Assembly (NCBI RefSeq): GCF_030013205.1
Contig: NZ_CP122648.1
Origin: Escherichia coli
GTDB taxonomy: Bacteria > Pseudomonadota > Gammaproteobacteria > Enterobacterales > Enterobacteriaceae
Direction: 5' to 3' (one strand)
Length of the DNA: 64,000 nucleotides
The notes under the pieces were generated by a model. It was not told where the DNA came from, made no database searches, and saw only the letters and a program-made list of their open reading frames with translations. Below, piece after piece: positions 20,790 to 60,210 of this stretch; within the stretch, counting starts at the first letter, position 1, and the number at the start of each line of letters is the position of its first letter. The translations under genes and the position numbers were made by a program.

Positions 20790-21520
20790 GCATAGCCGGA
20801 GGTTTTTCAAATGCGCCTATAAGGCTCTCTTACCAGCCGCGCCCTAACAGGCGCACACGATCTGACATTTGCATCCAACTTCGTTACTTACGGCCCGTAA
20901 ACGGGCTGCCCGGATAGGGAATCGATAACTGCTCTCCCATTTTATCCTCTTCAAGCTGGTGCTTTATGTAATCCTGTATCTTCGCCGTGTTCTTACCCAC
21001 CGTATCGACGTAGTACCCTCTGCACCAGAACTCTCTGTTCCTGTATTTGAATTTCAAATCACCAAACTGCTCGTAAAGCATCAGACTGCTTTTCCCTTTC
21101 AGATATCCCATAAAGCCGGATACGCTCATTTTGGGCGGGATCTCCACAAGCATATGGATATGATCTGCACAGCATTCAGCTTCAAGAATCCGTACGCTTT
21201 TCCACTCACACAGCTTTCTCAAAATACTGCCTATTGCTCTACGCTTCTCTCTGTAGAACACTTGTCTTCGGTATTTTGGCGCAAAAACTATGTGATATTT
21301 ACAGTTCCATCGGGTGTGCGCTAAGCTCTTTTCGTTCCCCATTGGGACCCCCTTTTGATTTCTTGTTTGACACTTGCAGTTGCCAGACCGCAAGGTGTTT
21401 TAACAAATCAAAAGGGGTTTTAATAACTGGCTCAAAGCTGAAAGCTTTCCGGAACCCCCAGCCTAGCTGGGGGTTTTCTGTGCACAAAAAAAACGCCGAC
21501 AATGTGCCGACGTTTTGATA
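20790..21520 (-). mobile_element. IS200-type insertion sequence (IS200/IS605 family); boundaries approximate
   Basis: The ycaL-aroA spacer is ~880 bp and contains a Y1 transposase ORF with flanking hairpins (e.g. CCCCCAGCCTAGCTGGGGG at ~21463-21485); ends not mapped precisely. Confidence 0.6.
20884..21342 (-). CDS. tnpA: IS200 transposase TnpA (HuH/Y1 single-strand transposase), 152 aa
   Basis: MGNEKSLAHTRWNCKYHIVFAPKYRR...ADHIHML (HuH motif)...; near-identical to recalled IS200 TnpA. Confidence 0.9.
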   Translation of the reverse strand: MGNEKSLAHTRWNCKYHIVFAPKYRRQVFYREKRRAIGSILRKLCEWKSVRILEAECCADHIHMLVEIPPKMSVSGFMGYLKGKSSLMLYEQFGDLKFKYRNREFWCRGYYVDTVGKNTAKIQDYIKHQLEEDKMGEQLSIPYPGSPFTGRK

Positions 21521-39223: not shown

Positions 39224-39393
39224 AATGGCTCACTCAAGCTTGCTCACGATTGATTCCAGTAACAAACCGTATTGTGTAATTATTTCTATAGCAGGTCGCT
39301 ATATAGGCTTGTATACATCGAATAATTTGAAAATCAAAGAGATAGGTAGATTTTCACTCGAAAGTAGTATTACGTGTAAGTGAGGAGTAATTA

Positions 39394-39407
39394 TTGTTCG
39401 GTATCAA
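39394..39407 (-). promoter_or_regulatory. Putative FNR-like half-site pair upstream of dmsA
   Basis: TTGTT-CGGT-ATCAA resembles the FNR consensus; distance to the dmsA start (~180 bp) makes assignment uncertain. Confidence 0.25.
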
Positions 39408-39419
39408 AGGGAGACAAAA

Positions 39420-39439
39420 AAAGCGCCCGCAGGCGCTTT
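39420..39439. repeat. attL: 20-bp direct repeat AAAGCGCCCGCAGGCGCTTT (prophage boundary)
   Basis: Identical copy at 60471-60490; palindromic stem; here followed on the minus strand by a T-run, i.e. the intact host terminator context. Confidence 0.8.
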
Positions 39440-39522
39440 AACGTTTCTTGCTCCCCCTGATGATTTACTTATTTTTCAACGAATAAGCCAAAACAGGGGG
39501 AACAAATTAACACAAATTATAA

Positions 39523-40515
39523 CTAATCGATGGACAGTTTATGGACACTTTCAGCCAGCGGATTAAAGTTGATCGCGTCCTGTAAGAAGTCCGGCGAAAA
39601 ATGAGCGTACGTCATTGTTTGCTGAATCGTTGCGTGCCCCAGGATTCGTTGCAACGTAACAATATTTCCGCCATTCATCATAAAGTGTGTGGCAAATGTA
39701 TGACGCATGACATGCGTAGCCTGCCCCTTCGGCAAATCCGGTTTCACCTCCTGAAGAATCTCCCGGAACTTCAGATAATCAACCTGATACAATAACCCCG
39801 TTCGACGGGTTTTAATCAGAGGCACGACCGAATCCGCCACAGGAACCGAACGGGATTTTCCGTTTTTGGTGTTAAAGAACGTCACCCGGTTGCCAACGAT
39901 ATGCTCTCCACGTAGTTCCGATGCTTCACTCCATCGGGCACCAGTAGAAAGACACAGAATGGCAACACGACGCGCATCACCCTCCAGTCGCTCAAGAAGC
40001 CGTTCAATCTCATCATCAGAAAGAAAGGCCATCTCTGTGTTCTGAACTTTCAGTTTTCGTATACCGCGTACAGGGTTCGCGTTGTGAAAGACCTCAGCTT
40101 CAATCAGCACCGTGAACATGGTAGACAGTACGCATAAGTCACGATTAATACTGGACGGCATTAATCCGGCCTGTAATTTCTCTGACCGATATTCAAGCAT
40201 AAATTTTCGCGTCATCTGACTGGCGCGAGGATCTCCCATTTCACGAACAACCTTCCCTAGCCTAACCCTGTAGCTATCCCCGTAAGCCTGATTACGCCCA
40301 TCAAGCATCCACCACGCATCAAGCAGCTCTGATAATCGCCGCTGATCAGCTGGCTTAGCCTGCCATGGCTTGTCATGAAAGTTCTGTAACACATACTTCT
40401 CAAACTCCTGAGCCTTTGATTTCAGGGCAAAGATTTTTCGAATCCGCTTTCCTTCCGCCCCCTGCGGTCTGACATCGACCTGATAACGTCCGTCTTTGAG
40501 TTGCTTAATCGACAT
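39523..40515 (-). CDS. int: Phage integrase (tyrosine recombinase, P2 Int-like)
   Basis: N-terminus MSIKQLKDGRYQVDVRPQG resembles P2 Int; C-terminal catalytic region with HxxR...Y; adjacent to attL. Confidence 0.88.
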   Translation of the reverse strand: MSIKQLKDGRYQVDVRPQGAEGKRIRKIFALKSKAQEFEKYVLQNFHDKPWQAKPADQRRLSELLDAWWMLDGRNQAYGDSYRVRLGKVVREMGDPRASQMTRKFMLEYRSEKLQAGLMPSSINRDLCVLSTMFTVLIEAEVFHNANPVRGIRKLKVQNTEMAFLSDDEIERLLERLEGDARRVAILCLSTGARWSEASELRGEHIVGNRVTFFNTKNGKSRSVPVADSVVPLIKTRRTGLLYQVDYLKFREILQEVKPDLPKGQATHVMRHTFATHFMMNGGNIVTLQRILGHATIQQTMTYAHFSPDFLQDAINFNPLAESVHKLSID

Positions 40516-40584: not shown

Positions 40585-40926
40585 TCAGCCAACATTGCGG
40601 CCTGATCGGGGTGATTTTTGGGTAATACCGATTGAAACCTGATCGCCCTCCGACTGAATAGATCCATCAAGAGAGAGAGCCGGAGCAATCTGCCCGGCGA
40701 CAGGTAGCGTCTTATCTTTTATTAGCCACAGCATGTATTTTTCAAAGCGATCGACTTGCAGAACCGCCTCAACGATTTTTGCTCTAGCGTTCTTTTGCCC
40801 CGATTCGTAATTCCTTATGGTTGCCAAAGACAACCCAGTAATATCCGCAAACTGCTTTTGTGTTAACCCTTCCGCCTTACGTATCTGACGTAACTTTTTT
40901 GCATAGTCTATTGACAAGATAACCAT
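40585..40926 (-). CDS. Prophage repressor (P2 C-like, HTH)
   Basis: HTH LTQKQFADITGLSLATIRNYESG and C-terminal GQIAPAL motif resembling P2 C; start uncertain (ORF extends to 40980). Confidence 0.75.
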   Translation of the reverse strand: MVILSIDYAKKLRQIRKAEGLTQKQFADITGLSLATIRNYESGQKNARAKIVEAVLQVDRFEKYMLWLIKDKTLPVAGQIAPALSLDGSIQSEGDQVSIGITQKSPRSGRNVG

Positions 40927-41030: not shown

Positions 41031-41552
41031 ATGCGGGACTTCATTGCCGATAAAGAGTTATCTGACCACCAACCACTTCAGGAAAGTGACGCACTCAGCG
41101 GATCCATTGATGCCGCCAACGACGACGAACACGAAGAAAACAAGAAAAAGCGTTCCTACAAAAAAGGAGCGACTTTACGGCTGGATGGTCCGATCGCCGG
41201 GCTTTGCTCTCTGGAAAAAGGCGCGGCATATATTGGGCTAACAAAATCTGCACTGCGCGTAGCCATTCATCGCGGTCAAATGCCGGGACACAAGACGCGC
41301 ACAAACCCGGAAGATGAAAACTCAGACGGAGTATGGTGGTTTAACGCCAAAGAGTGGGACGCACTGGCTGACGAGCTACCGGAACTTGAGCCACCAGAAT
41401 GGCACAACTGGAAAAGTTACTGGACGTATGACCGCCAGAAAAGAAAGTTCTTTCCAGCTAATAAAGAAGACTGCCAGACCATTAACGGTAAGCGAGTTTA
41501 TACAGGCAGAAGCTCAAAACTGAACCAACTCAGAAACAACAGAGGCAACTAA
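41031..41552 (+). CDS. Early protein with excisionase/AlpA-like HTH (possible Cox analogue), 173 aa
   Basis: First gene of the rightward early operon with a good RBS; segment YIGLTKSALRVAIHRGQMPG resembles Xis/AlpA HTH. Confidence 0.5.
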   Translation: MRDFIADKELSDHQPLQESDALSGSIDAANDDEHEENKKKRSYKKGATLRLDGPIAGLCSLEKGAAYIGLTKSALRVAIHRGQMPGHKTRTNPEDENSDGVWWFNAKEWDALADELPELEPPEWHNWKSYWTYDRQKRKFFPANKEDCQTINGKRVYTGRSSKLNQLRNNRGN

Positions 41553-41556
41553 TCGT

Positions 41557-41979
41557 ATGAAAACAAACACGTCAGATTTCACAATAACTATTTCAAAAAA
41601 TGACCAAGCATTAATTGATAACCTGAAATACCTTGCGGAAAAACATAATAACGGACGAATTGCAATTAATTTACGACACATCACAGGAGTAACAATTGTA
41701 ACCAGTTACTGGCATCTATATCTAATCGCTAAATCAGTACTGGAAAACAAAGATTCTGTTGTCAATGGAAGAGATGTAGATACTCTTCCTGCACAAATCA
41801 AACCGATAGCCTATCAATTGCGTAATCGTTTTAAAAATGAAGGTGGGATTATATTTGACTTTCCCGCAGCTGTAGCCGTGAGCTTCTCTCGGGAGGATAT
41901 ACTTCACTCATTTCGTTTTGCTCTATCAGGTGACGAGACATTATGGCAGCTAGAAGATGCCGGGAGCAGCCCGGCATAA
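41557..41979 (+). CDS. Hypothetical protein, 140 aa, AT-rich cargo
   Basis: ORF starts 5 bp after the preceding gene; markedly AT-rich; no recognisable domain. Confidence 0.5.
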   Translation: MKTNTSDFTITISKNDQALIDNLKYLAEKHNNGRIAINLRHITGVTIVTSYWHLYLIAKSVLENKDSVVNGRDVDTLPAQIKPIAYQLRNRFKNEGGIIFDFPAAVAVSFSREDILHSFRFALSGDETLWQLEDAGSSPA

Positions 41980-41985
41980 ATCAAA

Positions 41986-42177
41986 TTAAAAATCAACCAG
42001 TTGTGTGACAGGTGGGTATTTACGCTGAATTTTGTCAGTTACTAACGCCAGTAATATATGAATCTCTGCGTTTAATGCGTCTTTATCACCCGTCGTTTTT
42101 ACCCTAGGAGGGTTAATGTTATCCAGAGCAGCACTAAGGTCACTCAACAAATTAACAACTTTTTTATCTTCTGACAT
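41986..42177 (-). CDS. Hypothetical small protein, 63 aa, convergent to the 140-aa ORF
   Basis: AT-rich ORF on the opposite strand inside the early region. Confidence 0.35.
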   Translation of the reverse strand: MSEDKKVVNLLSDLSAALDNINPPRVKTTGDKDALNAEIHILLALVTDKIQRKYPPVTQLVDF

Positions 42178-42312
42178 GAAAACCTCTAAACAATTTAATT
42201 AAACATAAGCCAGGACCTGAACCGGCCAGTCCAAGTCCTAGACACACAAAAAATACCACAAATCAATACAAGGTGACACGAGTACACCTTACCGAAGGTA
42301 CAGAGTTTTAAT

Positions 42313-42673: not shown

Positions 42674-42961
42674 ATGACCAAAGAGCATGCACAAGGTGTA
42701 TTTATCCGTTTTATTGATTTTCGCGGTGAAATGTTATTACGCGCATCCGCTATTGATGGAGTGGCTCCAGCGGGTAAAAACGGAGCCAACGAAGCCACTT
42801 ACGTTTATCTGAACAGCACGCGACTGCTTGTGGAACTTCCGTACCAGACCGTACGAGAAATCATTAGTGAAGCTGAAAAGGCACGCCAGGCTAATGGCGA
42901 TAAACCCTATATCGAAATTATTTGTATGGATTCAGAAACTGAAATTCAGAAAGCAGATTAA
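42674..42961 (+). CDS. Hypothetical phage early protein, ~95 aa
   Basis: Start taken at MTKEHAQG; tight spacing with neighbours. Confidence 0.45.
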   Translation: MTKEHAQGVFIRFIDFRGEMLLRASAIDGVAPAGKNGANEATYVYLNSTRLLVELPYQTVREIISEAEKARQANGDKPYIEIICMDSETEIQKAD

Positions 42962-42972
42962 AGGGCGTTGCG

Positions 42973-43215
42973 ATGGGCAAAGAATATAAAACTCTCATTA
43001 ACAAAGCACTTGAGCGTTTTTATTTTCGCTTAAGTGCATCAGGCGCTCATGCTGAACGTGCAGCCCGTGACTCATTGACCAGGGCAATCCGGAGTCTGTA
43101 TGACGTGGCTTTTTACGCTGATGATCTGGATGCACTTAACGAACTTTCCGAGCTGATCTGTGCCGCAGAATGCGGGGAACATATTGAACCGTATAAGCTG
43201 GGGAATATCGCATGA
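42973..43215 (+). CDS. Hypothetical phage early protein, 80 aa
   Basis: ORF ending in an ATGA overlap with the following small ORF. Confidence 0.45.
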   Translation: MGKEYKTLINKALERFYFRLSASGAHAERAARDSLTRAIRSLYDVAFYADDLDALNELSELICAAECGEHIEPYKLGNIA

Positions 43216-43325
43216 GTATATTTATCTCGTGGCTTGTTCTGATTATTTCGGTGATCTGCGCTATTGGCATTATGCGAATTATTCATTCAGTGAAAAAGAT
43301 TGAGCGTTTTTTCTCTGACGAATAA
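43212..43325 (+). CDS. Small hydrophobic peptide, 37 aa (MSIFISWLVLIISVICAIGIMRIIHSVKKIERFFSDE)
   Basis: ATG overlaps the upstream stop (ATGA); single TM helix; below the ORF-track length cutoff. Confidence 0.35.
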   Translation: MSIFISWLVLIISVICAIGIMRIIHSVKKIERFFSDE

Positions 43326-43418
43326 CAGCACAAATAAAACACCAGATTAAATAAGAAAACGTGAAAACCATCCGAATTAACGGAGGCATTCACACACGTA
43401 AATAATGGAGATACAAAA

Positions 43419-43829
43419 ATGAACGCAAAAGAAAAAGGCATTATAACTGCGCTAAAAAATATATCGGAGACCGCAAACAGAGCCATTCAGGATGCAACAA
43501 ATGCAGGAATGATTGGGCCTGCCACCACAGCCATGATGATAGCAAGAGTAACCGCCGAAGCAGCCGAAATTATCGAAAAACAGGATGCTGAACTAACGGT
43601 TCTCAGAACACAATCAGTCACCGAACTGGATTTGTCTAACACCGGACGCCTTATTTACACAATTGGCTCGGAGCCACAGCAATACACCATTATCGTCGGA
43701 TTACAGGATAAATACCTGATCACTCCTCACCCCATAAGGGAATCAGAAATTCTGACAAATCTCCGCCTGATAGAGCGCTCTCAAGTCGCATTCATTGATG
43801 ACGCACAGCGCACCGTATTTAACGCATAG
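43419..43829 (+). CDS. Hypothetical phage protein, 136 aa
   Basis: ORF in the early operon. Confidence 0.45.
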   Translation: MNAKEKGIITALKNISETANRAIQDATNAGMIGPATTAMMIARVTAEAAEIIEKQDAELTVLRTQSVTELDLSNTGRLIYTIGSEPQQYTIIVGLQDKYLITPHPIRESEILTNLRLIERSQVAFIDDAQRTVFNA

Positions 43830-43853
43830 GGTTACTGGACAAAGGGGGGCGCA

Positions 43854-44057
43854 ATGGCAATTAAGCGTTTTTCCGTCATTCGTTTCACATCCAGAGGGCG
43901 TGAATACGAGGTTGACGAACGGCTGATTAAAACGCTCGACCGTCACCGTTCGCAACCTGACGCGCATCACATTTACCTCACTGACGACACTTACTTCTGC
44001 GCCACCAACGTGGTGCAGGTGAATCTTATCAGACAGGTACAGGAGTCACGCAGATGA
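43854..44057 (+). CDS. Hypothetical phage protein, 67 aa
   Basis: 4-bp overlap with the next gene. Confidence 0.45.
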   Translation: MAIKRFSVIRFTSRGREYEVDERLIKTLDRHRSQPDAHHIYLTDDTYFCATNVVQVNLIRQVQESRR

Positions 44058-44299
44058 CCATTCTGGACTACATCACAGCCAATCCGGGTTGTAGCGGTGG
44101 AGAAATCGCCGCCGCGCTGAATACCCCAACCACAGCCATTAATGCTGAGTTGCGCCGACTCTGGCGTGACGGCTTAGTCATCAGAGAAGAGCGCAAAACA
44201 GGCGGTCGGTTCTCTTACCAGGTAAACCCGATGCCGTTCGGGTGTGGCAACCCACTTACTCACATGTTTAACCAGCTACTGAAGGAAGCCAGAGCATGA
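44054..44299 (+). CDS. Small winged-helix-like DNA-binding protein, 81 aa
   Basis: Segment GCSGGEIAAALNTPTTAINAELRRLWRDGLV resembles a wHTH recognition helix; ATGA-coupled on both sides. Confidence 0.45.
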   Translation: MTILDYITANPGCSGGEIAAALNTPTTAINAELRRLWRDGLVIREERKTGGRFSYQVNPMPFGCGNPLTHMFNQLLKEARA

Positions 44300-44595
44300 G
44301 CACCATCAACCACCAGGAACTACGCGAACTGGCGACTGACCTGCAACGAATGGCAACGCATCAAAAATTACTGGCGTTTCGCGCAATGCTCTCGCCATCT
44401 GCCGTGTTGGCACTACTGGATGAGCTGGAGCACGCCAGAACCACAGCGCCAGCCATTCGCCTGACGCTCCATCATGAAATCGCTGATTTCTGTGCACCAC
44501 TGGGTTCACCTGGCGAACCGGAAACACCGGAAGCAATGCAGCGAGAGCTGCTGCAACGCATCGACAAGGTTTTTGATTTTTTCCTTAACCAGTAA
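44296..44595 (+). CDS. Hypothetical phage protein, 99 aa
   Basis: Coupled ORF. Confidence 0.45.
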   Translation: MSTINHQELRELATDLQRMATHQKLLAFRAMLSPSAVLALLDELEHARTTAPAIRLTLHHEIADFCAPLGSPGEPETPEAMQRELLQRIDKVFDFFLNQ

Positions 44596-44606
44596 GGGAT
44601 CGCAGC

Positions 44607-44810
44607 ATGAACAAAAAGACCTGGTTTCGCGCATACATGTGGGCGCTGGTATGCGTCCTCGTTTCTCTCATTCTGTATGCAGGACTCCTCCCCCGAATGA
44701 TTTCATCAGACAGCTCCTTCCTGGTATTGCTGGGCATTTTCATTGCCATGCTGTACCCGGCAGGCGTTGTTCGCCTTTTCAGTAAGTACATCAAGGAAAT
44801 CAAACAATGA
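44607..44810 (+). CDS. Small two-helix membrane protein, 67 aa (possible NfeD-like partner)
   Basis: Two hydrophobic helices; stop overlaps the start of the SPFH gene (ATGA). Confidence 0.5.
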   Translation: MNKKTWFRAYMWALVCVLVSLILYAGLLPRMISSDSSFLVLLGIFIAMLYPAGVVRLFSKYIKEIKQ

Positions 44811-45637
44811 AGAAATTCAAACTCTTTCAGATTATCCCTCTTTTTGCCGCCATCCTGCTGGTTGGTTGCGATCGTGTTGAGCCAGGTAATGTGGGCATCA
44901 AAGTCAACAAACTGGGCGACGACAAAGGCGTCGGTGAAGTGGTTGGTGTTGGCCGCTACTGGACTGGCTGGAATACCGAGGTTTACATCTTCCCGACCTT
45001 CAAACAAATGAAGACCTACGATGAGCCGTTCAGCTTCCAGATGAGTGACGGCACAACCATCGGCTATCACATCGGTGTGGCCTACAAGGTTGATCCATCC
45101 AAAGTTACTACAGTGTTTCAGACCTACCGCAAAGGCGTGGATGACATTACCGACACTGACCTGCGCCAGAAGATCGCCGATGCACTCAACCGACTGGCCA
45201 GCAAAATGACCACCGACAAATTTATCGACGGCGGGAAATCTGAACTACTGGATGCAGCTCTTAAAGACATTCAGGAGGAAATGACACCCATCGGTATTCA
45301 GGTAATGAGCCTCTCATATGTGGGTAAGCCGGAGTACCCGTCAACCGTTATCGACAGCATTAATGCCAAAGTCACGGCAAACCAGAAAACCCTGCAACGC
45401 GAACAGGAAGTCAAGCAACGTGAAGCAGAAGCCAACATGTTGCGCGCAGAAGCTGCCGGACAGGCTGATGCCATTCGCACAAAAGCCCAGGCTGAAGCCG
45501 ACGCCATTCGTTTACGCGGTGAAGCTCTGCGCCAGAATCCCGGCGTTATGGAGCTGGAAGCAATCAACAAATGGAACGGCACGCTGCCGCAATACATGAC
45601 CAGCAATACCGCTGTTCCGTTTGTTCCGGTGAAGTAA
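44807..45637 (+). CDS. SPFH/band-7 (stomatin/prohibitin-like) lipoprotein, 276 aa
   Basis: Lipobox LLVGC; SPFH-like core followed by an Ala/Glu-rich coiled coil (REAEANMLRAEAAGQADAIRTKAQAEADAIRLRGEA). Confidence 0.65.
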   Translation: MKKFKLFQIIPLFAAILLVGCDRVEPGNVGIKVNKLGDDKGVGEVVGVGRYWTGWNTEVYIFPTFKQMKTYDEPFSFQMSDGTTIGYHIGVAYKVDPSKVTTVFQTYRKGVDDITDTDLRQKIADALNRLASKMTTDKFIDGGKSELLDAALKDIQEEMTPIGIQVMSLSYVGKPEYPSTVIDSINAKVTANQKTLQREQEVKQREAEANMLRAEAAGQADAIRTKAQAEADAIRLRGEALRQNPGVMELEAINKWNGTLPQYMTSNTAVPFVPVK

Positions 45638-46004
45638 TTAAACCCGGCCAGTGAAAATCACTGGCCGGAGCAGTATCAGGATTTTTTAGTATGCCGTTCT
45701 CACAAAAAAACCGCTTGCCATGCCGCAATCAGTCAGGTTACATTTCCGCTGCACCTCATAAAACGGGTGCCGGGATTTCCACCCCGCTGACAACCAAAGC
45801 GCACAACCGCGCCAGCGGTTTTTTTGTGCGTACCGTATCGCCACGTCTTTTTCGCACACGAATTATGGTGGGGCGTATGGGGCCGACTTCGGTCGGGCCG
45901 GGTTCTTTGGTTGCCGGTTGTGGAAACCCTGTACGTCTCACCACCCCGAGTTTTCCACCTCTGGATGGTGAGTTTTCAAAACTTACAACCAAAGAGGCCA
46001 CACC

Positions 46005-46235
46005 ATGGCAAACCGCAAACAACAGCGCACATACGCTGCGCGTCGTCACATCCAGACTGAAATCAACCGCAGACTTTTCCGCGCATTCCGCGTCGCGCAA
46101 ATCATGCACATCAATATGCTGCATGAACGCAGTCACGCACTATCGAACAGCTATTCCGCCTCTGTTTTCAGCTATCTGGCGGATGATCTGCGCGAGCTTC
46201 AGCAGCTCATCCAGCAGCAAAACAAACTCCATTAA
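46005..46235 (+). CDS. Hypothetical small basic protein, 76 aa
   Basis: ORF downstream of a structured non-coding stretch. Confidence 0.35.
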   Translation: MANRKQQRTYAARRHIQTEINRRLFRAFRVAQIMHINMLHERSHALSNSYSASVFSYLADDLRELQQLIQQQNKLH

Positions 46236-46307
46236 TTCCTGTTCCGGGCCTTTCCTGCACCTTGCGGCGGGAGGCCTTCGCACATCTGTAACAAGAGGAG
46301 TGCCGCA

Positions 46308-46673
46308 ATGATTCTCGCCAACGACTTTCTTGAATACCTGCTCAACACAGAGCGTGATCTTGCCGTTCGCGTGCGTGACCGTTATGACATGTACCTGAAA
46401 TCCCTGCCTGTACCGCAGCTCGCTGACGGAAAGATTGTTATTGATGGCCGCTACATGATTGACAGCCACGAGGGAAATTACAGGCTTTACCGCATTGAAG
46501 GCGGCACCCCGTCCGTTATTGGCATTTACCAGCGCCCATCCTCTGCGATCGTCGATGTGATTGCAGACAGCATCCGCATCACACATCACTATGCCGACAC
46601 AGAAGACACCGTGCTGGAAATTCAGCGGCTGGCTACAGTCTGCCGCGACACCCTGAATGGCATGACGAAGTAA
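46308..46673 (+). CDS. Hypothetical phage protein, 121 aa
   Basis: Tightly packed with downstream ORFs. Confidence 0.45.
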   Translation: MILANDFLEYLLNTERDLAVRVRDRYDMYLKSLPVPQLADGKIVIDGRYMIDSHEGNYRLYRIEGGTPSVIGIYQRPSSAIVDVIADSIRITHHYADTEDTVLEIQRLATVCRDTLNGMTK

Positions 46674-46679
46674 ATCACT

Positions 46680-46967
46680 ATGACAGCAGAGTACATCAGG
46701 GACTGGCAACAACCGCGCCACGCAGTGGGGCGTGAAGGAACGGGGATCCCTGCTCCTGAAGCGGTGGAAGGTGTCGCAACGTCACAGGCCGACATTATCG
46801 ACCGTTTTAATGCGCTGGAAACCCGCCATCAGCAGGACAGCCAGAAAATCACTTTACTGACCACAGAGCTGACAGCACTGAAGGAAAAACTGCGCACGCA
46901 GGACGGCGATCCGCAGAACCGGTTCACCGCAACGGGCGCAGCCTCCGATCAACTGGCTGACTTCTGA
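46680..46967 (+). CDS. Hypothetical phage protein, 95 aa
   Basis: Tightly packed ORF. Confidence 0.45.
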   Translation: MTAEYIRDWQQPRHAVGREGTGIPAPEAVEGVATSQADIIDRFNALETRHQQDSQKITLLTTELTALKEKLRTQDGDPQNRFTATGAASDQLADF

Positions 46968-46990
46968 TAAGACAAAGGAGCAAATTTTTT

Positions 46991-47254
46991 ATGAATCTGG
47001 TGATGTCAGATATTACCCGCAACAAGCTGGGTTGCTATATGGCGCAGCAGGCGTCGCTTAACAACATCCCGGTATCTGCACTGGTATCGCGATTTACCGT
47101 GGAACCCTCGGTGTCCGCCATTGCTGCCGCACTGCATGTGCACGGTGTGCAACGCGTGGAAATAATCGAACCCACACAGAATATGGCCATCAGCGACATA
47201 CAGGCGGCGCGCTGTGAGTCATTCACCATCAGCGAAGGTGGACGCAATGAGTAA
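46991..47254 (+). CDS. Short ORF (87 aa) overlapping the gpI start; possibly a 3' remnant of baseplate gene J
   Basis: 8-bp overlap with gpI as expected for a J/I junction; far shorter than P2 J (~300 aa). Confidence 0.35.
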   Translation: MNLVMSDITRNKLGCYMAQQASLNNIPVSALVSRFTVEPSVSAIAAALHVHGVQRVEIIEPTQNMAISDIQAARCESFTISEGGRNE

Positions 47255-50442: not shown

Positions 50443-51059
50443 TGGCATTCAGAATGAGTGAACAATCACGTACTGTAAAAATTTATAACCTGCTGGCCGG
50501 AACTAATGAGTTTATTGGTGAAGGTGACGCATATATTCCACCTCATACAGGGCTGCCAGCCAATTCTACAGATATCGCCCCACCGGAAATTCCTGCTGGC
50601 TTTGTGGCAGTTTTTAACAGTGAAAATGAATCGTGGAATATTGTTGAAGACCATCGTGGTAAAACGGTCTATGACGTGGCATCGGGGGACGCGTTGTTTA
50701 TTTCTGAACCCGGACCGCTACCAGAGAATGTCACCTGGTTGTCGCCAGCAGGGGAGTATCAGAAGTGGGACGGCGTATCCTGGGTGAAGGATGAGGAAGC
50801 AGAAAAACTGTTTCGGATACGGGAAGCGGAAGAGAAAAAGGCAAGGTTGATCCAGGAAGCAACAGATAACATCGCAATTCTGCAGGATGCAGTTAATCTT
50901 GAAATAGCAACAAACGAGGAAAATTCACAACTGGATTCCTGGAGAAAATACAGAGTATTAGTGAGTAGAATTGACACCAGTACAGCTCCGGATATCGTAT
51001 GGCCAGAGCTGATGAATCAGGGTTATGTGCGGGAGGACGAGCAGATAACTTCAGACTGA
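50442..51059 (+). CDS. Tail fiber assembly chaperone (P2 gpG/Tfa-like), 205 aa
   Basis: TAATG-coupled to the fiber gene; Tfa-like sequence. Confidence 0.8.
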
Positions 51060-51586
51060 AATTTAGTGATGAATGTTGAATCATCTGGAATATCATGCAA
51101 TACCAATGCATGAGCACCTATTGTGACATTGTTTCCTATACGCACTTTGCCACCAAGAATGGTGGCATTACAACCAATGGTCACATTATGTCCTATAACA
51201 ATATCCATATCATTAAAATCACCACGCAGCCCAATAGTTACCCCTGGTTTTATTGAACAATTTTCACCGATTGTTACTTTGTGACCGATAACAACACTGT
51301 TGAGATAAGAAATATCAAAGCCTTTCCCTATATTTACAGTTAAAGGGACTGTTACATTATATTTATCAAGAATGAAACGTTCTATTTTCCCCGCAATCTT
51401 CCGACAGCATCCGCCTTTATCAAAAAGGTATTTGGCTATGCGCCACCAAAATAAATAACGAACTCTTCTATGTTTTATTGCGCGAACAATTGCCTTTCGC
51501 CAGGAGAAAGGACGCTCGCTACCGATTACTTCATAGTGAATACAATCTTTAAGTTCATTAATATTCATATCTCTATTATTCAGCAT
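51023..51586 (-). CDS. Hexapeptide-repeat O-acetyltransferase (WcaB/CysE-like), 187 aa
   Basis: Left-handed beta-helix repeats ([45 protein letters not shown]); AT-rich; 37-bp convergent overlap with the fiber assembly gene. Confidence 0.75.
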
Positions 51587-59618: not shown

Positions 59619-59879
59619 ATGTTCCGTTGTCCGCTTTGTGGCGCATCTGCCCGTATCCGCACCAGTCGTCCGGAAAATGATTCAAACACCGTGCGGCAAA
59701 AGTATTACCAGTGCAACAACCTGGAATGCGGCGTATGCTTCTCAACACTGGAAGCTTTCCATAAATTCACATCGAAACACGCCTCCGGCATCCACTCTTC
59801 AGAAGGTATCCCGTGGCATGAGCTGCCAGCTTCACACAGGGGAAACAATCAGATGAGCTTGCCTTTACCTCAGAATTAA
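59619..59879 (+). CDS. ogr: Ogr/Delta-like zinc-finger late gene activator, 86 aa
   Basis: MFRCPLCGASARIRTSR...QKYYQCNNLECG: CxxC...CxxC arrangement as in P2 Ogr. Confidence 0.8.
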   Translation: MFRCPLCGASARIRTSRPENDSNTVRQKYYQCNNLECGVCFSTLEAFHKFTSKHASGIHSSEGIPWHELPASHRGNNQMSLPLPQN

Positions 59880-59939: not shown

Positions 59940-60152
59940 ATGGTCGGAGGGAATACCCGAAGGCCGGATGTGGAAAGGCCCCGGAAAACATTTTTGTTTA
60001 ACCGAGGCCCTGACCATACAACCTTCGCAAGTCGTAGGTTAGCGCCTCTCCAACAAAGGAGCAAGCGCTATGTCGCAAAAATCGCTTATGGCCATCACGT
60101 TCTGCGTGACGGTAATCCTCATCATCTGGATGCTGCACGGTTCGCTGTGTGA
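59940..60152 (+). CDS. Mok-like reading frame overlapping the hok-like toxin gene
   Basis: 70-codon ORF in another frame, starting upstream of and ending within the toxin ORF, as in hok/mok loci. Confidence 0.4.
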   Translation: MVGGNTRRPDVERPRKTFLFNRGPDHTTFASRRLAPLQQRSKRYVAKIAYGHHVLRDGNPHHLDAARFAV

Positions 60153-60210
60153 AATACGGATGAGCTTCTGGGGAGCGGAGTTTGCGGCGTTCTTACAGTG
60201 TAAGCAGTAA
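60070..60210 (+). CDS. Hok/Gef-family type I toxin, 46 aa (MSQKSLMAITFCVTVILIIWMLHGSLCEIRMSFWGAEFAAFLQCKQ)
   Basis: N-terminal TM helix then SLCEIR and AAF motifs characteristic of Hok-family toxins; RBS AAGGAG 8 nt upstream; below the ORF-track length cutoff. Confidence 0.75.
   Translation: MSQKSLMAITFCVTVILIIWMLHGSLCEIRMSFWGAEFAAFLQCKQ

Follow-up and report, generated by a model that had tools for sequence, protein, structure and literature searches.

An SPFH Lipoprotein and Its Predicted Transmembrane Hairpin Partner in a Two-Gene Phage Cassette of Escherichia coli

Introduction

The SPFH (band 7) cages, among them HflK/C, prohibitin, flotillin, stomatin, and erlin, are scaffolds whose structures have been solved at a fast pace, while their cellular roles are still described in vague terms. 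The NfeD-paired members QmcA and YqiK face the cytoplasm. NfeD itself is a protein of 140-150 amino acids (aa) with three hydrophobic stretches and a soluble β (OB-fold) domain (PMC2636767). Phages carry SPFH genes as well: for about 20 years, genes labeled "SPFH/band 7 lipoprotein" or "serine protease" have been flagged in phage genome papers without a function, which was called unknown or was a subject of speculation (PMC13239085, PMC10269572, PMC1524935, PMC3220722). The present article deals with one such gene in a 64,000-nucleotide (nt) stretch of Escherichia coli DNA (contig NZ_CP122648.1), hereafter the window. Here, a 276-aa SPFH lipoprotein is encoded in overlap with an upstream gene for a 67-aa hairpin protein of two transmembrane (TM) helices, and both lie as a cassette in the early operon of a degraded P88-like prophage.

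A literature search found no functional study of the phage SPFH family, and the sole phage-borne SPFH protein with functional data that it returned is PM0222 from a Pasteurella prophage. For the hairpin partner and its fusions with SPFH, no description was found in the searchable literature. What is new here is thus not the SPFH gene, which is common and already annotated, but its combination with a non-NfeD hairpin partner, a predicted lipid anchor, and a phage early-gene lifestyle.

The Hairpin and the SPFH Lipoprotein as a Unit

Judged by comparison across phages, the hairpin is a real and conserved partner of the SPFH lipoprotein. A small open reading frame (ORF) of the partner family overlaps the SPFH start in all 80 of 80 IMG/VR loci, by 4, 7, 10, or 23 nt, and this overlap is not a matter of chance. 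The viral-contig search was run with an 11-sequence alignment and returned relatives that were all at least 92% identical; wider diversity was drawn from contigs encoding the SPFH family and from the phage database. phiP27, P1-like plasmid prophages, and the N4-like phage phiEaP8 also have the partner ORF, although it was left without annotation there. In 15 further loci with distant SPFH homologues (25-62% identity), a small membrane-protein gene stands immediately or closely upstream every time (15/15).

The strongest argument for a functional link comes from natural fusions, which make up about 19 of the 150 best family representatives. These proteins of 320-390 aa run in the order TM1, P-x-L-[IV]-S-[AS]-x-[ST] loop, TM2, basic linker, signal-anchor with lipobox Cys, and SPFH domain; they read as the two window proteins joined end to end, and three were checked as single ORFs on their contigs. 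A hidden Markov model (HMM) built solely from the first 62 residues of the fusion proteins recognizes the separate small ORFs of the window (1.5e-9), of phiP27 (1.8e-17), and of the P1-like prophages (4.4e-12), while the best of the other 796 six-frame window ORFs, including the polytopic focA, ycaM, ycaD, and dmsC, reaches only E≈1. The profile approach was needed, as phmmer searches of the small protein against the fusion proteins were marginal (E about 1e-3). The fusions and the HMM match therefore provide Rosetta-stone evidence that the two products act together.

With the same model, 12 of the 15 distant upstream genes are significant or borderline. The clearer distant matches span 5e-14 to 3e-6 and come from rV5-like phages (GAP31, 5e-14; Hena1, 4e-12), N4-like phiEaP8 (1e-11), LUZ24-like Ab22 (4.7e-9), Mu-like Pa5400 (1.3e-8), Myxococcus phage Mx1 (3.7e-8), and the metagenomic locus L087 (2.7e-13); L085, L090, and L091 were also matched. 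FelixO1-like phiEa104 follows at 1.5e-4, and the partner of crAss-like cr85_1 is borderline, with E values from 8e-4 to 2e-3 that vary with the ORF set. Both genes are under purifying selection, as the ratios of nonsynonymous to synonymous polymorphism (pN/pS) of 0.31 for the partner and 0.035 for the SPFH gene indicate.

Two lineage-specific features deserve mention. The fusion proteins (P0124, P0136, P0140, and others; loci L093, L107, and L108) keep the lipobox Cys after their two TM helices, and it is invariant in alignment A3. This raises the question of whether the internal lipobox still undergoes lipidation and cleavage, by which a three-TM fragment and a mature lipoprotein would be released. 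In the Vequintavirinae (Hena1, L096, 2642-4155; GAP31, L097, 2633-4125), a soluble protein of 54-57 aa, which may be ribbon-helix-helix-like, separates the hairpin and SPFH genes, and a secreted protein of 64-73 aa with conserved cysteines comes after them. In some lineages, further components may belong to the module.

The SPFH Lipoprotein

The 276-aa protein genuinely belongs to the SPFH superfamily and, with 8.5e-112, to PHROG 200 ("lipoprotein"). The Pfam family Band_7 (PF01145) matches residues 23-209 with an i-Evalue of 1.8e-30, covering model positions 2-176 of 176. An AlphaFold2 monomer model computed from an 86-sequence family alignment has a mean predicted local distance difference test (pLDDT) score of 92.2 and a predicted TM-score (pTM) of 0.75. 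It consists of a signal-peptide helix (2-18), a β-rich SPFH core (21-176), a 65-residue helix (179-243), a short helix (246-255), and a flexible tail. An earlier sequence-only reading had proposed a lipoprotein with an SPFH-like core and an Ala/Glu-rich coiled coil, and the Band_7 match, the LLVGC lipobox (Cys21), and the long helix bear it out. Near the C-terminus, W256 is invariant in the 86-sequence alignment, and G258 and P261 are at least 90% conserved; this W-x-G-x-x-P motif and the tail have low confidence in the monomer model.

Foldseek aligned the full chain with HflK/C, PHB1/2, erlin1/2, stomatin, flotillin, and QmcA at 1e-13 to 1e-7, with HflK/C at 1.6e-13, erlin1/2 at a TM-score of 0.62, and QmcA-YbbJ at 5e-8; the major vault protein was also found. 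A sequence search of the PDB returned HflK at 6e-4. The protein is, nevertheless, no HflK or HflC orthologue: that identity is rejected because the NCBIfam equivalog cut-offs are missed by a wide distance (HflC, 24.3 bits vs 134.4; HflK, 23.5 bits vs 159.4).

The N-terminus has the architecture of a lipoprotein signal, with the basic n-region MKKFK, the h-region LFQIIPLFAAILLV, and the lipobox L-V-G-C21, from which lipidation is predicted. The codons of Cys21 and Asp22 (+2) are at 44867-44869 and 44870-44872, respectively. Cys21 is at least 90% conserved in the 86-sequence alignment and invariant in alignments A2 and A3; a lipobox was found in 112 of 150 family representatives, and the pair C21-D22 is common to the window, phiP27, and P1-like copies. 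In E. coli, Asp at +2 is a Lol-avoidance signal that leads to inner-membrane retention. The mature SPFH protein should therefore remain on the periplasmic leaflet of the inner membrane, a placement that is predicted both from the lipobox with Asp+2 and from the fused forms with their three N-terminal TM segments.

Many database entries label homologues of this protein as "serine protease", "transposase", or "high frequency of lysogenization C protein", with examples in Stx2, phiP27, and Erwinia phages and in crAss cr85_1. The "serine protease" label on the Stx2, phiP27, and Erwinia phage copies was examined and rejected: only Band_7 was found, and no protease domain. It is probably a legacy of the old HflC/HflA-type "protease" naming. 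Such labels, together with the unannotated hairpin genes, are systematic annotation errors.

The Hairpin Partner

Hydropathy places TM1 at about residues 9-27 and TM2 at about residues 38-56 of the 67-aa protein, and a concatenated AlphaFold2 model has helices at 3-32 and 37-65 with pLDDT values of 85-93; both agree with the two-helix membrane protein of the sequence-only reading. Basic N- and C-terminal tails (+3 each) surround a neutral loop, LPRMISSDSS, so that the positive-inside rule predicts an N-in/C-in topology. The loop motif (Table 1) is the sole well-conserved stretch among 16 diverse partners and 19 fusion N-termini. Since nearly identical mature SPFH proteins occur with three dissimilar partners that share little but this motif (see below), the periplasmic loop is the most probable site of contact or function.

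The protein matches PHROG 1130 ("membrane protein", moron/host-takeover category) at 1.3e-22. The entries of PHROG 200 and PHROG 1130 give a generic product name only; they name no tested function and do not connect the two families. Neither the 67-aa protein nor its 16 diverse homologues matched a Pfam family, including NfeD, holin, and T4 Imm-type immunity proteins, and the partner alignment, searched as a profile against the PDB, had no meaningful match. Among 5.8 billion proteins, the profile search returned 84 clusters, named "hypothetical" or "membrane protein" save for one automatic "Holin". One P88-type locus of the 80 in IMG/VR has a frameshifted small ORF, with an N-terminal half GPRYEQKDL... 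that rejoins the family at ...PRMISSDSS; it may be a decaying copy or a sequencing error.

Cassette Boundaries, Transcription, and Distribution

The two genes are cleanly delimited as an insertion. In phage vB_EcoM-569R5 (L104), the homologies to 42900-44613 and 45701-46760 are contiguous with nothing in between, so that the intervening 1,087 bp are a clean insertion. It begins 7 nt inside the first gene and holds exactly two genes and a 3' hairpin. In the phage Shae_phiSM, the same slot contains different cargo, a D5-like helix-turn-helix regulator. The homology of both phages ends shortly past the 99-aa ead/Ea22-like gene.

The sequence-only reading had described five consecutive ORFs joined by overlaps into an operon that ends in the SPFH gene. 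The coordinates and the strand of the five genes are right, and 4-nt ATGA overlaps exist at three junctions (44054, 44296, and 44807), while the junction 44595/44607 is an 11-nt gap; a purine-rich motif resembling a Shine-Dalgarno sequence precedes each of the five starts. The chain is longer than five genes, as it runs on the + strand from cox onwards. The "ending" may be literally right for one transcription unit, because the isrK RNA, with a promoter-like site at 45715-45744, and the C4 RNA lie immediately downstream.

A crude scan by consensus match found no promoter-like site on the + strand in 43407-45714; the site directly before isrK is the only one in the area. Since the insertion starts 7 nt into a gene, follows an 11-nt gap, and has no predicted promoter, the cassette appears to ride on the transcription of the early operon, and it lacks the own promoter by which morons are recognized. 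The RNA fold of 45630-45700 has a free energy of -23.9 kcal/mol (z = -4.0). Its hairpin is missing from the empty site of 569R5, and a T-run begins on the + strand about 13 nt past the stem; it may act as a weak or noncanonical terminator or as a stabilizer. The isrK/C4 region looks like an RNA switch of the P1 c4, P4 CI, or Gifsy IsrK type ahead of replication genes. A 206-aa ORF (45691-46311) and a RefSeq "ash family protein" pseudogene overlap both RNAs and are probably not real coding sequence.

The family is widespread. The SPFH search gave 2,889 cluster representatives at 50% identity with E<1e-3, 221 of them at <1e-30, and tblastn found the family in 384 of 50,697 phage records. At least 548 viral contigs carry it, and the association of the homologues with mobile elements, which the sequence-only reading had made a test of its proposal, is overwhelming. 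Temperate carriers include P88, Stx2, phiP27, SSU5, P1-like RCS47, and Mu-like Pseudomonas phages. The N4-, LUZ24-, rV5-, FelixO1-, phiCbK-, and crAss-like phages, Lak phages, and jumbo phages among the carriers are classed here as virulent, which we presume from taxonomy and general knowledge. The hosts named among the matches listed are all diderm, and the family is present in phages of Pseudomonadota, Myxococcota, and Bacteroidota. Wherever neighboring genes are informatively annotated, they are early, replication, recombination, or nucleotide-metabolism genes.

In E. coli, 715 of 5,426 complete genomes (13%) have the gene; its places number 417 on chromosomes and 391 on plasmids, a single genome has up to three copies, and all cases examined are on phage-type elements. 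Three cassette types can be distinguished, whose mature SPFH parts are 95-98% identical, while the partners share 25-45% and the signal peptides 32-42% identity. Toward the other cassette types, DNA similarity sets in at the codon of the lipobox Cys or slightly ahead of it (44858-44867). Either a recent recombination sweep of the mature-domain segment into old cassettes or a rapid diversification of partner and signal peptide would explain this break.

Prophage Context

The window is 100% identical to the chromosome of E. coli ETEC4079, and the host of the cassette is a porcine enterotoxigenic E. coli (ETEC) strain. The prophage is P88-like (Peduoviridae, Xuanwuvirus) and is sited between dmsA and serS. 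About 15 kb of P88 are missing, comprising most of gene A, the portal, terminase, capsid, and lysis genes, and part of the tail genes; the prophage is therefore unable to replicate or assemble. Of replication gene A, an 84-nt remnant is left (46680-46763), which borders on pieces of the GPO scaffold and major capsid genes (~46680-47113; RefSeq annotation). The P2-type defense hotspot between gpA and gpQ was deleted along with the missing segment.

The run of + strand genes that starts with cox (41031) and includes the five ORFs is interrupted solely by a short - strand ORF (41986-42177) and its associated hairpin. The position of the cassette within the early operon, already proposed from the sequence alone, is supported by synteny with P88 and P2. 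That reading was likewise right on the absence of the pair from canonical P2, as the P2 operon contains only cox-orf78-B-orf80-83-A. The Pe/cox operon of P2 has C repressor-binding sites (O1, O2) at Pe.

Several further differences from P88 were observed. Between cox and the DUF4761 gene (41557-42300), two additional genes are found, namely a 140-aa + strand ORF without PHROG match and the convergent 63-aa - strand ORF (41986-42177). The terminator-like hairpin at 42241-42210 (-) lies just upstream of this convergent ORF and is hence not its terminator. This interval is another variable slot that breaks up the early operon. A second indel relative to P88 (43399-43844) holds a 136-aa ORF (43419-43829; PHROG 9338), which is absent from P88 and present in 569R5 and Shae_phiSM; a weak promoter-like site precedes it at 43377-43406. 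Rfam small-RNA matches include STnc130 (39314-39448, +), just beyond the integrase end, and STnc490 (21352-21475, -). A serine acetyltransferase gene (~51023-51568, -), next to the one for tail-fibre assembly, is a possible moron for O-antigen modification.

Table 1. Features of the hairpin-SPFH cassette and of the surrounding prophage (window positions).
Feature	Position	Strand	Basis or remark
Integrase	39523-40515		
C-type repressor	40585-40926	-	
cox	41031-41552		first of the + strand early genes, among which are the five ORFs
67-aa ORF, PHROG 3459	43854-44057	+	outside the cassette; kept in sister phages without the SPFH cassette
81-aa winged-helix (MarR-like) protein	44054-44299	+	ATGA overlap with the preceding ORF
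99-aa ead/Ea22-like protein	44296-44595	+	last gene ahead of the variable cargo slot
67-aa two-TM hairpin partner	44607-44810	+	
Cassette insertion, 1,087 bp	44614-45700	+	blastn against the empty site in phage vB_EcoM-569R5
Loop motif P-x-[LM]-[IV]-S-[SA]-x-[DST] (PRMISSDSS, residues 29-37)	44691-44717	+	predicted periplasmic loop
276-aa SPFH (Band 7) lipoprotein precursor	44807-45637	+	ATGA overlap with the partner gene
Predicted lipoprotein signal peptide MKKFKLFQIIPLFAAILLVG	44807-44872	+	sequence
Ala/Glu-rich wall helix (residues 179-243), short helix (246-255), and W256-x-G258-x-x-P261 motif	45341-45589	+	AlphaFold2 secondary structure, alignment
GC-rich hairpin, 11-12 bp stem, 3-nt loop	45643-45669	+	3' end of the cassette
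isrK Hfq-binding small RNA	45751-45825	+	Rfam gathering-level match, 64 bits; immediately downstream of the cassette
C4 antisense RNA	45861-45948	+	Rfam gathering-level match, 80.5 bits
ogr	59619-59879		
hok (Hok/Gef toxin gene)	60070-60210	+	prophage right end, beside ogr

Proposed Role and Alternatives

The reading we prefer, with a probability of roughly one half for the package as a whole, is that of a mobile two-gene phage cassette for an early-expressed inner-membrane SPFH scaffold with a membrane-insulating role. The cassette is inserted into a variable slot of the cox-side early operon of the degraded prophage. Its hairpin would sit in the inner membrane in N-in/C-in orientation and expose the short conserved loop to the periplasm, and the SPFH lipoprotein, translationally coupled to it, would be held at the periplasmic face by Asp +2. 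By analogy with HflK/C, prohibitin, and erlin, the SPFH subunits may assemble into a ring or cage that stands on the membrane, with the hairpin supplying, in a 1:1 pairing, the TM element that is absent from the lipid-anchored protein and that HflK/C and the fused forms have in cis. Both genes would be transcribed along with those of the early lytic phase rather than in the repressed prophage, so that a patch of the inner membrane of the infected cell would be conditioned during lytic growth. The most likely read-out would be insulation against the entry of superinfecting phage DNA or against membrane-damaging effectors. The gene structure, the SPFH domain and fold, the lipobox, the conservation and fusion of the partner, the boundaries of the cassette, and its distribution among phages are observed here; we infer the inner-membrane localization, the cage assembly, the 1:1 pairing, the early-only expression, and the physiological role, and this last is the weakest link. 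Most of the homologues sampled have early or replication genes as neighbors and belong to phages classed as virulent, which favors a role in lytic growth over standing prophage defense.

Several observations weigh against this interpretation. The expression timing rests on gene architecture and a crude promoter scan. The prophage has lost the ability to replicate and to assemble, yet its cassette is intact, which could mean a benefit for the host in the lysogenic state. The Pasteurella protein PM0222, of similar size and described as HflK/C-like, is expressed in lysogens and found in outer-membrane vesicles (OMVs) (PMC9872710). With its low pN/pS (0.035) and its conservation in several phyla, the SPFH gene looks more like one directed at a conserved host target than like one in an arms race with other phages, which weakens the exclusion read-out. 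The +2 residue varies among the 150 family representatives (T, S, D, G, E, and others), so that inner-membrane retention by the enterobacterial rule is not universal. Finally, the upstream TM proteins of Burkholderia phage E173, the metagenomic locus L092, and phiCbK had no significant HMM score, so that the pairing is only tentative in these most distant members; in E173, the loop motif is visible by eye.

A broader and clearly more tentative idea is that of a two-component device, split or fused, that spans phage lineages and, early in the infection of diderm hosts, builds an HflK/C-like cage at the periplasmic side of the inner membrane. If true, the device would be a host-takeover or counter-defense organelle instead of a passive "lipoprotein" moron, and it could hijack FtsH-type quality control, act as a shield against pore-forming abortive-infection effectors, or close the membrane to superinfecting DNA.

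Among the rival explanations, the one that survives best, although we consider it unlikely, is an HflK/C mimic acting on FtsH. It would enclose FtsH or compete with HflK/C and thereby alter the access to membrane or phage substrates such as regulators, holins, or other small phage membrane proteins. The nearest relatives in sequence and structure are the FtsH-bound HflK/HflC and, besides it, prohibitin and erlin, all noncytoplasmic SPFH cages that work with membrane AAA proteases or endoplasmic-reticulum-associated degradation (ERAD), and the predicted topology is the same as that of HflK/C. A universal, conserved host target would also be the best fit to the strong purifying selection and the spread across phyla, and other phage SPFH genes have prompted the same suggestion (PMC10269572). 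The similarity, however, ends far under the cut-offs of the HflK/HflC models (24 bits vs 134 and 159), there is a single SPFH gene rather than a K/C pair, and no FtsH-related gene is linked to it. The neighbors of the phiEaP8 copy labeled "FtsH" and "ClpX" were considered as such a link and rejected, since they are generic AAA+ matches far below cut-off. P2-like phages are not known to have an FtsH-controlled switch, which also counts against the mimic.

The envelope-level exclusion or defense module that the sequence-only reading had put forward, in the form of a system that is expressed in the lysogen and blocks incoming phages at the envelope, appears improbable on present evidence. A membrane protein with a periplasmic lipoprotein is the classic make-up of a superinfection exclusion (Sie) system. 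The variable cargo slot with alternative cargo in sister phages, the intactness of the cassette in a defective prophage, its presence in 13% of complete E. coli genomes within phage-type elements in all cases examined, and the quick diversification of partner and signal peptide all point the same way. The proposal is, nonetheless, left unsupported by the searches. In PADLOC-DB v2, the SPFH protein had no match and the small protein only PDC-M18B at E = 0.0078 without a passing stretch; a catalogued defense system was therefore rejected. The cassette lies upstream of the gpA remnant, outside the P2 gpA-gpQ hotspot (PMC9122126), and SPFH is not mentioned in two papers on the P2/P4 hotspots. The insertion leaves no space for a promoter, an upstream one is not predicted either, and the genes are on the same strand within a C-repressed early operon, unlike P2 tin and old. 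Up to three copies reside together in one genome, and many carriers are classed as virulent, for which a defense of the lysogenic state would be meaningless.

Still less probable is a device for lysis timing or membrane integrity, in which the cage would stabilize the inner membrane or sequester holin-type proteins, averting early triggering and allowing a larger burst. Holins and i-spanins act where the module is predicted to lie, at the inner membrane's periplasmic face; many carriers are classed as virulent; and one partner homologue bears the automated UniRef label "Holin". This label is a single unsupported automatic name, no Pfam holin match was obtained for any partner member, and the module lies in a lysis cassette in 0 of ~20 contexts, its neighbors being early and replication genes instead.

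A lysogenic-conversion or virulence lipoprotein that benefits the host through envelope stress tolerance, as OMV cargo, or as a TLR2 agonist seems very doubtful. Its best precedent is again PM0222 (25-35 kDa), which was detected in lysogen cells and OMVs and whose deletion is reported to attenuate virulence (PMC9872710); the porcine ETEC host and the intact cassette in a defective prophage would also suit this explanation. PM0222 is likened to the window protein by description only, and the virulent-phage carriers, the lack of a promoter, and the retention by Asp+2 argue against display at the surface or in OMVs in E. coli. The canonical SPFH-NfeD scaffold pair of the QmcA-YbbJ or YqiK-YqiJ type, suggested by a small membrane-protein gene immediately upstream and co-translated with SPFH and by the structural match to QmcA-YbbJ (5e-8), is hardly tenable, because the 67-aa partner has two helices only and no NfeD/OB-fold Pfam match, alone or in 16 members, and because the SPFH protein is here a predicted secreted lipoprotein in place of the cytoplasm-facing QmcA and YqiK.

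Significance

What was an orphan annotation is now a defined module of two components. A diagnostic motif marks the partner, fusions of the two occur in nature, and both the topology and the time of expression can be predicted. The module spans P2-like, lambdoid/Stx2, P1-like plasmid, N4-, LUZ24-, and rV5-like phages, and crAss-like phages with a weakly matching partner. Why phages build SPFH scaffolds can thereby be tested directly in E. coli, given an intact P88-like phage. Since several lineages of therapeutic phages and Stx2 phages carry the module, any effect on superinfection, lysis, or envelope integrity would also be of practical relevance.

Comparison with Known Systems

Known Sie membrane proteins and lipoproteins include T4 Imm and Sp, P22 SieA, T5 Llp, phi80/HK022 Cor, and TP-J34 Ltp, of which T4 imm and sp and T5 llp are expressed early. 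The hairpin and the SPFH protein share with them, as a lead, that they are phage-encoded envelope proteins, lipoproteins among them, presumably acting at the membrane. Sie proteins are narrow in distribution and fast-evolving, in contrast to the SPFH gene, which has a pN/pS of 0.035 and is conserved in phages of three bacterial phyla. In sequence and domains there is no similarity to them, and no Imm-type match was found in Pfam. A "superinfection exclusion protein" annotated beside an SPFH gene in phage PhiSH19 (Vi01-like) was considered as a relative and rejected: the SPFH lipoprotein is of a very distant type, of which 33 N-terminal residues align, the neighbor is a soluble acidic protein, and the partner HMM has no match nearby.

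Like P2 tin and old and the P2/P4 hotspots (PMC9122126), the cassette is accessory cargo, carried in a variable slot by a phage of the P2 family. The two P2 genes are located on the opposite strand between gpA and gpQ and have their own mapped transcript starts, whereas the cassette is in-strand and upstream of gpA, with no room for a promoter. PM0222, a prophage-encoded SPFH protein of similar size, can be set beside the window protein by description. It is presented as a virulence factor detected in OMVs and lysogens and as a TLR1/2 agonist, and the accessible part of that paper does not mention a partner protein (PMC9872710).

The resemblance to SPFH-NfeD operons (QmcA-YbbJ, PDB 8z5g; YqiK-YqiJ; PH1511-PH1510), to which the sequence-only reading had drawn attention, holds in part. 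A small membrane-protein gene lies directly upstream of an SPFH scaffold in both, the adjacent partner is conserved and even fused, and it presumably occupies the membrane patch beneath the cage. An NfeD identity of the 67-aa protein is rejected on its two helices and the negative HMM searches with it and its 16 relatives: the partner is half the size of NfeD, has no OB-fold and no detectable homology to it, and the predicted orientation of the SPFH protein is opposite.

The closest counterpart is HflK/HflC-FtsH (PDB 7vhp, 7vhq, 7wi3, 9cz2). HflK/HflC is the best full-length relative in structure and sequence, with the same SPFH core, long wall helix, and C-terminal cap segment, and the phage protein is likewise predicted to lie at the periplasmic face of the inner membrane. 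The two differ in their make-up: HflK and HflC are a pair with N-terminal TM helices, while the phage cassette combines a single SPFH protein, with a predicted lipid anchor, and a separate two-TM partner.

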